Made by a program: the position numbers and the translations under genes
The notes under the pieces: generated by a model
What the model saw: only the letters and a program-made list of their open reading frames with translations
Told to the model about the DNA's origin: nothing
The model's database searches: none
Part shown: positions 24,925 to 30,429 of the stretch, piece by piece
Layout of the letters: each line of letters begins with the position of its first letter
How positions within the stretch are numbered: the first letter of the stretch is position 1
Source: Clostridia bacterium
GTDB taxonomy: Bacteria; Bacillota; Clostridia; Christensenellales; CAG-314
Reading direction: 5' to 3'
Length of the DNA stretch: 32,792 nucleotides
Assembly: GCA_017407305.1 (NCBI GenBank)
Contig: JAFQWS010000040.1
Location: 1 to 32,792 of the forward strand

Positions 24925-26526
24925 ATGAAGGGTATTATCTCAATGCTTGGAATCGTGCCTTCTTTTGAAGAAATTGAAGCTGGTTCACGTGGCATTTTCC
25001 AATTTATGGCAGAGTTTTTTGGCAATTTTTTTGCCAATTTGTGGTCTGCCTTTTCGGGCGTTTTCACAGGTTTGTGGGATGCTCTCAACATCGGTTGGTA
25101 CATAGATCTCATCAACGTTTATGGCGAAACCGTCGGTGGCGCATGGATTTGGGTTGTTGGTATTTTGTGCCTTCTTTGCATCGTTGCACTTTTGGTCGGT
25201 GCCGTTTGGGGCATCGTCATTTTGGTACGCACCATTATTGAACGCAACAAAATTGCAAAGACAAAATACGACCTTGTTCAAGAAGTGCGCGCATTATCTC
25301 GCGAAGTTATGCGTCTCAATTTGGAAAAAGACAAAATTTTGTCCATGAAAGTTTCCCAAATTGGTCTCAACCCCAACGAAATCTCCTCTTTGACAGGAGA
25401 AGACCTCGACACGCTCAACGGCGAAAAAGACAAAGAAGAAGAAAATGGTTCTCGCTACTATCGTTTGACAAAAATCGACGAAGAATTCAAAAATTACGTT
25501 GCTCCAGAATTTGAAACTGACTTTACCCTTCCCGAATTGTGCGAAAGATTCAGAAACTTTGCATGTTCCAAACTCGGCTTGTTCTACGAACCCGGTATCA
25601 TTCGCACCTTTATTGCATCTTTTGGTTCCACACGTGTCATCATTTTGCAAGGTATTTCCGGTACAGGTAAAACATCCTTGCCCTACGCATTTGGTAAGTT
25701 TATTCAAAACGACACACTCATTTGTTCCGTCCAACCTTCTTGGCGTGACAGAAGTGAATTGTTTGGCTACTTCAACGAATTTACCAAACGTTACAACGAA
25801 ACTGATATGTTGGAATATCTTTACAAAGCAACTTATATGGAAGACGTGCACGTCGCCATCATGGACGAGTGCAACATCGCCCGTATCGAATATTATTTTG
25901 CCGAGTTGTTGTCCATTTTGGAAATGCCTTCCCGCGACGAATGGATCATCAACTTGACATCCTCTCAATGGGACACCGACCCTGTTCACATTGTGGAAGG
26001 TCGCTTGCAACTTCCCTCCAACGTCTGGTACGTTGGCACTGCAAACAACGACGACTCCACCTTTGCCATCACAGACAAAGTTTACGACCGTGCAATGCCC
26101 ATTGACATCAACAGCAAGGGTGTTGCCTTTGACGCACCCGACACCGAACCCATGCGCCTTTCAGCAAAGGTTTTGGAACAAAAACTTGACGAAGCAAAAG
26201 TCAAATACGCAGTCAGCCGTGACACACTCAACAAACTTGGTTTGCTTGACGACTACGTCATCGAACACTTCCGTTTGGCATTTGGTAACCGTATCGTAAA
26301 ACAACTCAACGAATTTATTCCTTGCTACGTTGCTTGTGGCGGTACCGAATTGGAAGGTCTTGACTTGGTTTTGACCAAGAAAATTTTCCGCAAATTTGAA
26401 GCAATGAACTTGGCTTACATCCGTGACGAAATTGACGGTCTTTGCGACTATCTCGACGTTTTGTTTGGCCAAGATATGATGAAAGAAAGCAAAGCATATT
26501 TGTTGCACCTTAAGAAATTGATCTAA
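24925..26526 (+). CDS. Membrane-anchored McrB-family AAA+ NTPase (AAA_5-like)
   Basis: N-terminal hydrophobic segments (FFGNFFANLWSAFSGVFTGLW; AWIWVVGILCLLCIVALLVGAVWGIVILV) followed by basic residues and a coiled coil. Walker A is GISGTGKTS. SVQPSWRDRSELFGYFN is present. Walker B and the McrB signature read AIMDECNIARIEYYFAELLSILE. GTANNDDS corresponds to McrB GTMNTADRS, with the NxxD motif retained. RBS aggag, 20 nt after the sipW stop. Confidence 0.7.
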   Translation: MKGIISMLGIVPSFEEIEAGSRGIFQFMAEFFGNFFANLWSAFSGVFTGLWDALNIGWYIDLINVYGETVGGAWIWVVGILCLLCIVALLVGAVWGIVILVRTIIERNKIAKTKYDLVQEVRALSREVMRLNLEKDKILSMKVSQIGLNPNEISSLTGEDLDTLNGEKDKEEENGSRYYRLTKIDEEFKNYVAPEFETDFTLPELCERFRNFACSKLGLFYEPGIIRTFIASFGSTRVIILQGISGTGKTSLPYAFGKFIQNDTLICSVQPSWRDRSELFGYFNEFTKRYNETDMLEYLYKATYMEDVHVAIMDECNIARIEYYFAELLSILEMPSRDEWIINLTSSQWDTDPVHIVEGRLQLPSNVWYVGTANNDDSTFAITDKVYDRAMPIDINSKGVAFDAPDTEPMRLSAKVLEQKLDEAKVKYAVSRDTLNKLGLLDDYVIEHFRLAFGNRIVKQLNEFIPCYVACGGTELEGLDLVLTKKIFRKFEAMNLAYIRDEIDGLCDYLDVLFGQDMMKESKAYLLHLKKLI

Positions 26527-26527
26527 T

Positions 26528-28006: not shown

Positions 28007-30429
28007 AAAATTTATTAAACGCCATTGATATTTTCAACAATATACCAGCCCTGATTGCAATTTGCGCAGGACTGGTTCTTTCCGTTGTTGCAGTTGTCGC
28101 AACTCTCGTTATCAAAAAGAAACGTTCCCAAAAGCTTATGGAAACTTTCGATTGGCAAGTGGCTTCCGTTGCCAAACAAGAAATTGTTGAAGAAGAAGAG
28201 GAGATTGAAGAACTTGCCCTTATTCTCAACGACGAAGATGACGAAGAAGACGAATCCAGCGACAAAGTTGCCTACAAACGCAGTTATTTTTCCAAATTGG
28301 TGCAATCCAGCGACGAACTCAAAAGTGAGTACAATCACTTTAAAAACGTTTTGTTGTCTTACGGACGTTCTCGTTCGCGTTTTTCTTGGTATTACGAAAG
28401 CTTTTACGTAAACAAGTTCCAATTTGCTCGTTTGATTTTCCGTGGCAAAACACTTTGTTTGTGCATTGCAATTGACTATGACGTTGTAAAAGACAATTTC
28501 AAAAACCTTGAAAACATGTCTGGGGCTTCTCGTTACAAAGAAACACCCACTTTGATGCGTTTGAAAAATCCCAAAAATTTCCGTAATGCAACCAAGTTGG
28601 TGGAAACGTATATGTCCTTGAACAACGTTGAACAAGGCTCTGTGGAAAGCATTGACTACGTTCCCGCCTATATGACCGACGAAGAATTGTTGGCAAACAA
28701 ATACATCCGTCCTTTGGAAATCACACAAGGCCCCACCCCCAAATCTGCCAAAGAAGAATTGGACGAATTGGACTTGAGTGGCGACATTGAAGACGACGAA
28801 GTGGAAATTTTGGTGGACAACGAAGGCAACGTGGAAGAAATCAAATTCAAACGTTCCATGCAATCTCGCATCATCCAATCCAATGACGTTTGCAAGTTCA
28901 GATACAATGCAATCAAAAACGCCTTCCTTTCCAACAAGGCAATCACTTCCAAATACGATTGGGCATACGAACTTTTCCACTTGGACGGCAAGGAAATTGG
29001 TAAAATCAACGTCAAAAACAATCGTTTGTACGTTTCGTTGCCTTTGCCTGTTCCTACCGAGGACGTATCCTATCCTTACGTTGACAACACCACCAAAAAG
29101 GCTTACAAAAACACACCTTTGACGTTGGTTGTCAAAACAAACAAAACTGCAAGACTCTGTATCAAATTCATCAGACAAATAATTGCCGACAATGGTTTGA
29201 CCAGTCACTTACATAAATTTAAACAAGACTATACCATGCCCTATCAATCCAGCTTGCAATTGGAAAAACAAGGCTTGGTAAAATTCACCGACAAAGACCA
29301 AGAAGAATTGTATCGCACCAAGTGGGACAAAGATCTTCTGGAAAGCAAAATTTTTGCCCAACACGAAAACTACTTTGCCGACTTTGAAAAAGATTTTTCC
29401 ATTGACGTTGAAAAACTTTTGTTGGAAGAAACAAAAGTAAAACGCAGTGTCATGGCAAAACTTATTCAGGCAGATTTGCAAACAAAAGAATACTATCGCA
29501 AACTTGCCGAAAAATTGTTGTCCATAAAAGGCGTAAAAATGCGCACGTCTTGGTCGGTGGTAAAATTTTCTTTGCGTGGCCAAGCAATCGCTTACTTGAC
29601 GCTCAAAGGCAAAAAATTGAAACTTTACTTGGCTTTGCGCCCTGCATCTTTTGACAAAAAGGTCTATCACCACACCAACGCACCAAAAGCAAGACGTTAC
29701 GAAACAACGCCAATGGCAGTTACTGCATCGGGAAAACGTGCTTTTACTCGCGCATTGAAACTTATCGACGTCATGGTGGAAAAGAACGGGTACTCTTGGG
29801 GCAAACCCAAATCGTTGCCCGTTGAACAACTTTTCTATCAATCGGACAGTCAACTTTTGGAAAGTGGACTTGTAAAAGAAGTCAAAGAATCCATTGCAGT
29901 TGCTCAAAGAATTCCTTCCATCGAAGATATTTACGGCCCTCACGTCTATTTGAGAAAATCTTTCTATGCTCGTTTGGTGCAAGAACGTGCCGAAGTCAAA
30001 AAGGCTTACGTCCAACTTGTCGAGCACTTGTCAACTTTTAAGCGCCTCAAATACAAGGCTTTGTGGGGAAGCGAAACTTGGACCTACAAAAAAGACTTGA
30101 TGGCAAAAGCAGTGTTCAAAAACGATCGTTTGGTTGTATTTTTCAACGTTGATCCCAAAAACAAGGCATTGAGAAAATTGCGCACCGAAAACAGAAGCCG
30201 TTACGCAAGTTGCCAAAAGACACCCACGATGATTCGTTTGGACAAGTTGGAAGATATTGCCAACGCAAAAGCAGTGGCAGACGTTGTTTTTGCAGACTTG
30301 CAAAAAGGCGATGTTGTTGCCCACACTCGTTCACTCAAAAAGGTTGGCACAATGCAACTTATTCAACAAGGACAAATTCGTGTGTCCAAGTTGCCCGACT
30401 TCTTGATTGAAAAACTTGAGAAAAAATAA
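28003..30429 (+). CDS. Membrane-anchored protein with acidic linker and four tandem ~117-aa basic repeat modules (unknown family)
   Basis: ATGA start/stop overlap with the upstream gene. The N-terminal TM segment (IPALIAICAGLVLSVVAVVATLVI) is followed by KKKRSQK, indicating a cytoplasmic C-terminus. An acidic run EEEEEIEE..DEDDEEDE follows, then the four repeats listed in the repeat feature. Confidence 0.6.
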   Translation: MKNLLNAIDIFNNIPALIAICAGLVLSVVAVVATLVIKKKRSQKLMETFDWQVASVAKQEIVEEEEEIEELALILNDEDDEEDESSDKVAYKRSYFSKLVQSSDELKSEYNHFKNVLLSYGRSRSRFSWYYESFYVNKFQFARLIFRGKTLCLCIAIDYDVVKDNFKNLENMSGASRYKETPTLMRLKNPKNFRNATKLVETYMSLNNVEQGSVESIDYVPAYMTDEELLANKYIRPLEITQGPTPKSAKEELDELDLSGDIEDDEVEILVDNEGNVEEIKFKRSMQSRIIQSNDVCKFRYNAIKNAFLSNKAITSKYDWAYELFHLDGKEIGKINVKNNRLYVSLPLPVPTEDVSYPYVDNTTKKAYKNTPLTLVVKTNKTARLCIKFIRQIIADNGLTSHLHKFKQDYTMPYQSSLQLEKQGLVKFTDKDQEELYRTKWDKDLLESKIFAQHENYFADFEKDFSIDVEKLLLEETKVKRSVMAKLIQADLQTKEYYRKLAEKLLSIKGVKMRTSWSVVKFSLRGQAIAYLTLKGKKLKLYLALRPASFDKKVYHHTNAPKARRYETTPMAVTASGKRAFTRALKLIDVMVEKNGYSWGKPKSLPVEQLFYQSDSQLLESGLVKEVKESIAVAQRIPSIEDIYGPHVYLRKSFYARLVQERAEVKKAYVQLVEHLSTFKRLKYKALWGSETWTYKKDLMAKAVFKNDRLVVFFNVDPKNKALRKLRTENRSRYASCQKTPTMIRLDKLEDIANAKAVADVVFADLQKGDVVAHTRSLKKVGTMQLIQQGQIRVSKLPDFLIEKLEKK
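28264..30297 (+). repeat. Four protein-level tandem repeats inside the 808-aa ORF
   Basis: R1 is 28264-28614 (KVAYKRSYFSKLVQSSDELKSEYNHFKNVLLSY..FRGKTLCLCIAIDYD..YKETPTLMRLKN). R2 is 28837-29187 (IKFKRSMQSRIIQSNDVCKFRYNAIKNAFLS..NNRLYVSLPLP..YKNTPLTLVVKTN). R3 is 29434-29787 (VKRSVMAKLIQADLQTKEYYRKLAEKLLS..GKKLKLYLALRP..YETTPMAVTASG). R4 is 29947-30297 (YLRKSFYARLVQERAEVKKAYVQLVEHLS..NDRLVVFFNVDP..CQKTPTMIRLDK). Each is followed by a short x-x-L-L-x-x-G-L-V-K-like tail. Confidence 0.75.

Follow-up and report, generated by a model that had tools for sequence, protein, structure and literature searches.

The window analysed here is a stretch of 32,792 nucleotides from a Clostridia bacterium (Christensenellales, CAG-314; assembly GCA_017407305.1, contig JAFQWS010000040.1), and our subject is a run of three consecutive genes in it, genes 1 to 3, which follow a gene for a SipW-type signal peptidase. 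Our analyses revealed that genes 1 and 2 very probably belong to CoCoPALM, a class of McrBC relatives that Bell et al. 2024 (PMC11090510) described by the fusion of the GTPase to a transmembrane (TM) segment and coiled coil that are FtsB-like, by coiled coils on both partners and by linkage to signal-peptidase genes. A GTPase with a TM segment and a coiled coil, an McrC homologue with a coiled coil of its own and an adjacent gene of the signal-peptidase family are all present in the window. The system is real and coherent, its kind has a name, and the window holds a variant in which a repeat module is split off into a third, membrane-anchored gene. We consider it probable, with appreciable doubt, that CoCoPALM is an McrBC derivative without DNA targeting and without nuclease that is dedicated to a SipW-dependent secreted-fibre locus, where it would act as a GTP-driven cytoplasmic module and not in restriction.

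Bell et al. give CoCoPALM one paragraph with no functional data, predict a link to pilus assembly and defer the analysis to a later paper; the supplementary files available as text list no CoCoPALM entries. Our literature search found no later CoCoPALM paper and no experimental work, and, beyond Bell et al., nothing that links McrB or DUF2357 to SipW or to pili. An earlier, sequence-only reading of the window had taken the three genes for a membrane-tethered McrBC-like module, either a defence or abortive-infection system acting at the membrane or a nucleoside triphosphate (NTP)-driven machine for export or assembly of the neighbouring fibre, and had held that either would be new. The kind was already named by Bell et al.; what is new is the anatomy, a conserved tail on the SipW protein and the repeat module. 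Of the two proposals, it is the fibre-linked one that the conservation of the gene neighbourhood favours.

The McrB-type GTPase and its McrC-type partner

The three genes are coupled exactly as the sequence-only reading had described. The SipW-like open reading frame (ORF; 233 aa) stops at 24904, 20 nt ahead of gene 1, whose ATG is preceded by AGGAG, 8 nt upstream. A single T separates stop and start at the junction of genes 1 and 2 (TAA-T-ATG), and at the junction of genes 2 and 3 the ATG of gene 3 overlaps the TGA of gene 2 (ATGA). The coordinates of all features are collected in Table 1.

Gene 1 is, on the evidence of its sequence, an McrB-type NTPase whose Walker A, Walker B and signature motifs are intact and which a single TM helix and an invariant juxtamembrane coiled coil tether beneath the membrane. 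The E. coli McrB structures 6hz4, 6ut6 and 7vsr were its only AAA+ matches in the PDB at E ≤ 1, with the single sequence (2e-6) as with a profile of 19 sequences (6e-7), and the NCBIfam McrB model matched residues 220-414 (E 6e-7), which agrees with the family assigned earlier. Pfam gave AAA_5 only, below threshold (0.05); a closer relation to MoxR, RavA, dynein or another AAA_5 clade was considered and rejected, since the PDB matches of both sequence and profile comprised McrB and no member of such clades. In the alignment to E. coli McrB, which is ungapped, Walker B MDECN pairs with IDEIN (AIMDECN with IIDEIN) and ANNDDS with MNTADRS, and downstream D/R positions correspond as well. All three motifs quoted earlier for gene 1 (GISGTGKT, MDECNIARIEYYFAELLSILE and GTANNDDS) were found, and an alignment of 19 homologues shows most of their positions to be invariant: Walker A throughout, D314, E315 and N317 of Walker B, and N374, N375, D376 and D377 of the signature.

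The claim that the NxxD motif is retained is ambiguous. NNDD fits NxxD and also the NxD(D/E) variant. According to Bell et al. (PMC11090510), an NxD motif defines the branch of the McrB tree that holds CoCoNuT and CoCoPALM, whereas canonical McrB has NxxD; NNDD is compatible with NxD plus a further D, yet the ungapped alignment to E. coli McrB contains no deletion. One gene-1 homologue of 646 aa (P0002) carries an internal duplication of about 135 residues over the sensor and lid region, which could be an assembly artefact or real.

Residues 1-215 of gene 1 contain no N-terminal DNA-binding specificity domain, in agreement with the earlier description; this part is made up of an amphipathic segment, a single TM helix, a coiled coil and an acidic linker. 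Of the two membrane segments counted in that description one stands: the Kyte-Doolittle value in a 19-residue window is at least 1.5 across residues 65-107, where the TM helix lies, whereas the first segment (residues 24-60) is amphipathic and stays below TM hydrophobicity. This first segment contains the residues F27, F31, G33, F35, F36, W40, F47 and G49, all invariant in the 19-homologue alignment. The basic residues RTIIERNKIAKTK that follow the TM helix place the remainder of the protein in the cytoplasm. Within the coiled coil, a juxtamembrane stretch of 26 residues, EVMRLNLEKDKILSMKVSQIGLNPNE (residues 127-152; 25303-25380), is invariant among 19 sequences that are about 60% identical overall, and is as fully conserved as the NTPase motifs of the same protein. 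The coiled coil is the counterpart of the TM and coiled-coil region that Bell et al. call FtsB-like.

Gene 2 occupies the position of McrC, as had been proposed, and it carries DUF2357 (the McrB-interacting 'MN' domain), which Bell et al. 2024 equate with the N-terminal domain of McrC (PMC11090510). Against residues 1-340 of gene 2 the domain scores 29.1 bits (E 7.4e-7; cutoff 23.3); the match appears only after the coiled coil has been trimmed, and full-length gene 2 misses DUF2357 in a Pfam scan. The family supports the match, with 24 of 36 aligned members matching DUF2357 directly (best 7.5e-12) and many of the 245 homologues bearing a precomputed PF09823 (DUF2357) annotation. The conserved region spans approximately residues 30-330, and relatives of 700-960 aa with long coiled coils occur.

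The absence of a PD-(D/E)xK nuclease from gene 2, which had been judged by eye, is borne out by alignment and model. In the AlphaFold2 (AF2) model, with a mean predicted local distance difference test (pLDDT) score of 83, residues 190-303 form helices and one strand (pLDDT 74-94), after which the chain runs on as a single helix over residues 304-491; this is the C-terminal coiled coil of about 190 aa noted before. Past residue 131, the residues invariant in the family are R208, R211, F219, P236, P237, T241, N242, K246, L256, Y263 and G267, and no D or E is invariant after E131. Because the region is made of helices with one strand followed by one helix, and because it has no invariant acidic residue, we conclude that neither the PD-(D/E)xK fold nor its catalytic set is present. 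Searches of Pfam, PADLOC, NCBIfam and the PDB detected no nuclease or other effector family in gene 2 or gene 3. The possibility of an ordinary McrBC variant whose nuclease is merely hidden was considered and rejected on the invariant columns and the AF2 model of gene 2.

Compared with canonical McrBC (E. coli EcoKMcrBC; 6hz4, 6ut6, 7vsr), the module shares the ungapped AAA+ core, the gene order B then C and the N-terminal family of McrC. It differs in that a TM segment and a coiled coil replace the DNA-binding domain, in that the partner lacks the PD-(D/E)xK nuclease, and in that it lies in a conserved chromosomal secretion and fibre cluster with no methyltransferase or restriction context. 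With the CoCoNuT systems (CnuB/CnuC) it has in common the McrB and McrC homologues decorated with coiled coils, and also the missing nuclease of McrC, which in CoCoNuTs is often lost or inactivated (PMC11090510). By definition these systems always include a HEPN or other nuclease, and they are neither membrane-anchored nor SipW-linked, unlike the module in the window. Membership of CoCoNuT was rejected, no nuclease having been found in genes 2 and 3 or in the next gene.

Conservation of the pair within SipW-linked clusters

To place the module in its genomic context, one genome per species was scanned; 187 genomes held a gene-1 relative, and 80 of these loci were fetched, mostly from gut metagenome-assembled genomes (Ruminococcus, Oscillospiraceae, Acutalibacteraceae). 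Synteny was counted by ORF calling and iterative searches over 82 loci, 80 of them from the species-representative genomes. The neighbour directly upstream of the GTPase gene is a SipW gene in 71 of 78 loci, the one directly downstream is a gene-2 homologue in 71 of 79, and genes for secreted proteins that are putative fibre subunits, here called T proteins, lie at most six genes from the GTPase gene in 80 of 82. The common arrangement is T T T SipW / GTPase / coiled-coil McrC homologue / T T T (T SipW). The sequence-only reading had placed the module at the end of the fibre operon; this is so in the window, but most relatives have the pair in mid-cluster, and there 100-400 nt separate the SipW and GTPase genes. 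Nor is the trio a conserved unit: conservation is limited to genes 1 and 2 as a pair, and a separate gene 3 was seen in this lineage only.

The clusters are flanked by housekeeping genes (aconitase, MatE, LOG, FtsW) that recur between species, which points to a stable chromosomal position and to vertical inheritance. Gene 1 has more than 8000 homologue clusters, and the identity of the GTPase across species, 60-72% among the top matches listed, is unusual for defence genes.

The peptidase encoded upstream of gene 1 is of the SipW type (TIGR02228, 59.3 bits against a cutoff of 51.85; SipW equivalog model, 4e-26), and a second SipW-type peptidase, at 10542-11150, also exceeds the TIGR02228 cutoff. 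In the copy that adjoins the GTPase gene, the C-terminus forms a conserved cytoplasmic tail of about 45-60 aa, with the motif SLTEEQKQELFKKYL in the window. Over loci L003-L089, the tail motif L[ST]xE[EQK][KR]...(E/K)(E/K)Y[LI] was found in 52 of 78 upstream copies and in 0 of 28 downstream copies. This tail may be a docking site for a cytoplasmic machine.

The T proteins have in common a hydrophobic N-terminal segment followed by x(F/Y/V/L)AWF, and about half of the 426 T-family ORFs from all loci carry a C-terminal W.(E/D)G.D..C motif as well. Six of the seven T proteins in the window (6746-10538 and 20655-24112) have (F/L/Y)AW(F/I) right after the hydrophobic segment; among the three encoded upstream of gene 1, two (278 and 452 aa) show it as (A/S)TYAWF, and the 356-aa ORF at 20655-21725 has no such motif in its first 120 residues. 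Between the two blocks of SipW and T genes lies a gene for a 3138-aa protein (11143-20559) with ten stretches of BspA-type leucine-rich repeats (LRR_5, 4e-65), probably a giant adhesin of the same surface structure. In Ruminococcus loci (L003, 16676-21049; L004, 11558-15937), the largest T-family protein has about 1457 aa and combines Flg_new repeats with a CBM26 starch-binding module, which suggests that the fibre mediates adhesion to substrate.

Close parallels among known fibre operons are the tapA-sipW-tasA operon of B. subtilis and the sipW-bsaABC operon of C. perfringens. They share with the window a SipW-type peptidase, several paralogous secreted proteins and a distinctive motif just past the signal-anchor segment of these proteins. 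Unlike the cluster in the window, neither operon includes an NTPase; the clusters of the window type are much larger and contain giant proteins with LRR, Flg_new or CBM26 domains, and the secreted proteins of the window have no detectable similarity to TasA or camelysin. In C. perfringens the BsaA oligomers are membrane-anchored, and their route through the peptidoglycan is unclear (PMC11580942).

Gene 3 and the remainder of the window

Gene 3 proved to be built as first described, with one N-terminal hydrophobic segment, acidic linkers and four basic repeats. The repeats are about 120 aa long with isoelectric points (pI) of 9.7-10.5, and the linkers, one ahead of the first repeat and others between the repeats, have a pI of 4-5. 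They match one another in phmmer at E values of 1e-4 to 5e-12, repeats 2 and 4 only indirectly through repeats 1 and 3; shuffled controls gave 0 matches among 2000. Gene 3 has no match in Pfam, NCBIfam or PADLOC, and a word search found 16 homologues, two of them close. With a profile of the four repeats, 3164 cluster representatives were recovered at E ≤ 1e-3 among 1.84 billion proteins. Going by these comparisons of sequence, the repeat is a large family without a Pfam name. It is absent from most Ruminococcus-type clusters.

Two architectures are typical of the repeat family. In one, the repeats come after a TM helix at the N-terminus; in the other, the chain opens with a signal peptide and a huge ectodomain, and the repeats stand at the C-terminus behind a TM helix. 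In the latter, the repeats often form the C-terminal tail, behind the TM helix, of giant surface proteins of up to 5384 aa (P0257-P0405), and these tails are probably cytoplasmic. Some distant relatives of gene 3, located elsewhere in the genome, end in a ribosomal uL15-like domain (PF00828), and one standalone relative adjoins spoIVA.

A connection between the repeats and the McrC homologue emerged from fusion proteins. Among the 165 top repeat-family proteins, 35 also carry a gene-2-like DUF2357 domain (E 1e-11 to 1e-82; 33 of the 35 at 1e-55 or better), and most of these fusions have no TM helix between the two parts. The three fusions that were located (L092, L093, L095) each lie directly 3' of a CoCoPALM GTPase gene, in the order T-T-SipW-GTPase-fusion-SipW-74aa-(GGDEF/)EAL. 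As the fusions stand at this same position, gene 3 is a split, separately anchored version of a module that elsewhere belongs to the McrC homologue. That gene 3 is a chance neighbour was considered and is countered by the fusions. Its bulk is predicted to be cytoplasmic, given that KKKRSQK follows the TM anchor (the positive-inside rule) and that fusions without a TM helix join the repeats to the cytoplasmic DUF2357 domain; an extracellular gene 3 is countered on the same grounds. In the fusion lineage (L093, 5850-9267; L095, 12946-16239 and 4661-5476) the cluster includes a second SipW gene, a gene for a conserved 74-aa protein and EAL or GGDEF-EAL genes. The presence of such cyclic di-GMP (c-di-GMP) genes fits the regulation of a surface structure.

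The AF2 model of repeat 3 (pLDDT 96.3) gave as its best Foldseek match E. coli YjbR (2fki; E 9e-4, probability 1.0, TM-score 0.57), with further matches to 2oc6, 9t2w, 2od0 and 5jlt, and it also resembles DUF1801/YdhG proteins and the T4 MotA C-terminal domain. As modelled, the repeat folds like the α/β sandwich of YjbR and DUF1801, a resemblance of fold only and not a family membership. The sandwich topology is common to the repeat and to YjbR, DUF1801 and the MotA C-terminal domain; the repeat differs from them in having no Pfam match and in being tandem, strongly basic and either membrane-tethered or fused to DUF2357. The paper on the YjbR structure is said to describe this fold as a 'double-wing' DNA-binding motif.

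The separate, coupled and TM-anchored four-repeat gene, the fusions of repeats to McrC homologues and the SipW tail are not described in the available CoCoPALM text of Bell et al. (PMC11090510).

Table 1. Features of the module and of the neighbouring genes in the window
Feature	Position	Strand	Basis or remarks
Three genes for secreted T proteins, putative fibre subunits	20655..24112	+	homologues of T genes located around the pair in 80/82 loci
SipW-type (archaeal-type) signal peptidase I, specialised paralogue adjoining the GTPase gene	24203..24904	+	TIGR02228; SipW model; tail SLTEEQKQELFKKYL
Gene 1 (533 aa), McrB homologue, very probably CoCoPALM	24925..26526	+	ORF; McrB matches in PDB and NCBIfam
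Gene 1, conserved aromatic, amphipathic N-terminal segment, residues 24-60	24994..25104	+	under the transmembrane hydrophobicity threshold
Gene 1, transmembrane helix, residues 72-103	25138..25233	+	hydropathy; positive residues RTIIERNKIAKTK after it
Gene 1, juxtamembrane coiled coil, residues 113-152	25261..25380	+	conservation; weak leucine-zipper-type matches
Gene 1, McrB-type AAA+ core, residues 216-415	25570..26169	+	Walker A GISGTGKT, Walker B MDECN, NNDD within GTANNDDS
Gene 2 (492 aa), McrC homologue without nuclease	26528..28006	+	ORF; homologues annotated PF09823
Gene 2, DUF2357 (McrC N-terminal domain) match, residues 74-160, with invariant YENRF	26747..27007	+	Pfam
Gene 2, single 188-residue helix (coiled coil), residues 304-491	27437..28000	+	AF2; net charge +10, pI 9.5
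Gene 3 (808 aa), membrane-anchored four-repeat protein	28003..30429	+	ORF
Gene 3, transmembrane anchor, residues 14-37, KKKRSQK next	28042..28113	+	hydropathy
Gene 3, repeat 1, residues 90-210, pI 9.7	28270..28632	+	repeat comparison
Gene 3, repeat 2, residues 281-400, pI 9.9	28843..29202	+	repeat comparison
Gene 3, repeat 3 (the one modelled), residues 478-598, pI 10.5	29434..29796	+	AF2 and Foldseek
Gene 3, repeat 4, residues 649-769, pI 10.0	29947..30309	+	repeat comparison
Promoter-like site TTGAAA-17-TATAAT with TG (near-consensus extended -10)	30450-30478	+	11/12 consensus positions; just 3' of the gene-3 stop

The promoter-like site behind gene 3 probably marks the 3' limit of the unit. 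Downstream of it lie a gene for a very hydrophobic, small TM protein of 109 aa (30508-30837) and a perfect bidirectional terminator hairpin (30912-30935). Judging by the site and the terminator, the last gene of the unit is probably gene 3 or that of the small TM protein.

Several other genes of the window were noted. A 385-aa protein at 30994-32151 has an N-terminal TM helix and MBG_2 and YDG domains (6e-29), which are typical of large adhesin- or haemagglutinin-like surface proteins. A LepB-type signal peptidase at 1316-1957 brings the type I signal peptidases of the window to three; downstream of it, at 2767-4916, follow an SPFH/Band-7 protein with a C-terminal double zinc ribbon and a multi-zinc-ribbon protein. 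The G+C content falls to 0.30 at 6001-7000, just upstream of the first T gene (6746), compared with about 0.42 elsewhere, and this stretch may be a regulatory or intergenic AT-rich region.

Possible roles of the module

On balance, we think it more probable that the module helps to build, anchor or regulate the fibre than that it serves immunity, given the embedding of the pair among SipW and T genes, the SipW tail, the pattern of vertical inheritance, the lack of an effector and the c-di-GMP genes of a sister lineage. By analogy with McrBC, the GTPase of gene 1 would form a hexameric ring, and the DUF2357 domain of gene 2 would plug into this ring and stimulate GTP hydrolysis. The ring would be held at the inner face of the membrane beside SipW, perhaps through the SipW tail and the invariant segment of gene 1, and GTP-driven conformational work could be spent on organising, gating or anchoring the steps by which fibre subunits are processed and polymerised on the outer face. 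Such a role would resemble that of a pilus assembly platform or ATPase, and not that of a restriction enzyme. Gene 3 would contribute a separate, membrane-anchored chain of four basic YjbR-like domains, which may bind a polyanion, either nucleic acid or an anionic membrane lipid, at the same site.

A number of observations weigh against a fibre-dedicated McrBC derivative. The link of CoCoPALM to fibre assembly is drawn from guilt by association. No dedicated NTPase takes part in the assembly of SipW/TasA-type fibres in Bacillus and C. perfringens (PMC11580942), so that a motor is not obviously needed. The T proteins, moreover, had been called TasA-like, which sequence comparison could not confirm: a profile of the family (A5) found no TasA in the PDB, and Pfam searches with 29 members found Peptidase_M73 (TasA/camelysin) in one, at an E value of 0.076 only; the signal-proximal xAWF motif is the only resemblance. 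The basic repeats of gene 3, as modelled, hint at nucleic-acid binding, which a pure assembly model leaves unexplained. Foldseek of the full-length gene-2 model against the PDB did not recover McrC (best E 0.11), a search that was probably dominated by the 188-residue helix, and the untrimmed gene-2 alignment used as a profile against the PDB returned only coiled-coil noise. An hhalign comparison of the trimmed N-terminal domain of gene 2 with the single E. coli McrC sequence was negative (probability 0.2%), E. coli McrC being itself distant from DUF2357. As the comparisons with solved McrC were negative, it is the Pfam domain that carries the McrC relationship and the proposed geometry of ring and plug. 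Finally, the FtsB-like character given for the class was not recovered, hmmscan of the N-terminus of gene 1 having found no FtsB or DivIC homology at E ≤ 1.

The descent of the module from McrBC raises the question of an anti-phage or abortive-infection system that acts at the membrane, an explanation we regard as quite improbable. An McrBC-like complex at the base of the fibre, a possible phage receptor, would sense infection, possibly through incoming nucleic acid bound by the repeats, and would then block entry or kill the cell by non-nucleolytic means. It could draw on the closest relatives, the CoCoNuTs, which are predicted immune systems according to Bell et al. (PMC11090510), on the fold that the repeats of gene 3 share with the DNA-binding proteins YjbR and MotA, and on PADLOC, where the best match of gene 1 is the defence-candidate ATPase PDC-M26A (6.9e-33). 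This match, however, extends over the ATPase core only (profile positions 313-438 of 724). As no PADLOC model matches gene 2 or gene 3, the PDC-M26 candidate system is incomplete here. None of the three proteins has a detectable effector, and the loci examined have no restriction-modification, Abi or mobile-element genes on their flanks. The GTPase gene is highly conserved, apparently single-copy at the loci examined, and syntenic amid housekeeping genes in 80 species-level genomes, unlike the genes of patchy defence islands.

The basic repeats, as the main feature left unexplained by pure assembly, would suit a machine that handles nucleic acid and is coupled to the fibre, which we nevertheless hold to be distinctly unlikely. 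Here the GTPase ring would keep the translocase character of McrB and, with the basic double-wing repeats, move or tether DNA or RNA at the membrane, as in the release of extracellular DNA into the matrix, in DNA uptake or in the tethering of mRNA and ribosomes for co-translational export of very large fibre proteins. The pI of the repeats and their YjbR/DUF1801/MotA-like fold, the fusions of repeats to the McrC homologue in many lineages and the uL15-like domain on distant relatives of gene 3 would all be in keeping with it, as would the prediction by Bell et al. (PMC11090510) that the sister CoCoNuTs act on RNA. The fold match is only moderate, however, and comes with no membership at the level of sequence; basic charge suits the binding of anionic lipids equally well. 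The repeat is also the tail of numerous large surface proteins and is present in proteins that have no relation to McrBC, and its absence from most Ruminococcus-type clusters indicates that it is not essential to the core mechanism. Another possibility would be an FtsB-like organiser of the cell envelope or division site, or a general regulator, that just happens to lie among the fibre genes and has its target elsewhere, for example in septation, sporulation or wall remodelling. The FtsB homology of the TM and coiled-coil region reported by Bell et al. (PMC11090510) and the standalone gene-3 relative beside spoIVA speak for it, but SipW and T genes adjoin the pair almost without exception, the SipW paralogue next to it bears a conserved tail of its own, no division or sporulation genes recur in the loci, and the FtsB/DivIC relationship was undetected by hmmscan. 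We regard this last explanation as highly improbable.

The role in the fibre can be cast in a more ambitious form, which we put forward tentatively and consider unlikely as a whole: CoCoPALM would be the cytoplasmic motor and platform of a new Gram-positive fibre pathway, with the ring docked on the SipW tail, the processing and polymerisation of xAWF subunits coupled to GTP hydrolysis, and the repeats, whether joined to the McrC homologue or separate as in the window, tying the machine to nucleic acid, for example in extracellular DNA export or in the tethering of mRNA and ribosomes for giant subunits. If this were true, it would be the first non-immune cellular job for an engine of the McrBC type and the first NTP-dependent step in a system of the SipW/TasA type.

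To conclude, our work describes a very probable CoCoPALM variant. The name of the class had been published, and the value of the present analysis lies in the anatomy of the module and in a testable model that includes the SipW tail and an unnamed cytoplasmic repeat family. McrBC is the textbook GTP-driven restriction engine, and its CoCoPALM branch, which has lost DNA targeting and the nuclease, is found in the secreted-fibre loci of many Oscillospiraceae and Ruminococcus species of the gut. Should the fibre link prove functional, AAA+ rings of the McrB type would have been recruited for the building of surface structures, and the SipW fibres, hitherto thought to be energy-independent in their assembly, would have an NTP-dependent variant. 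With their giant LRR- and CBM26-type proteins, such fibres are likely adhesion organelles of abundant starch- and fibre-degrading gut bacteria.

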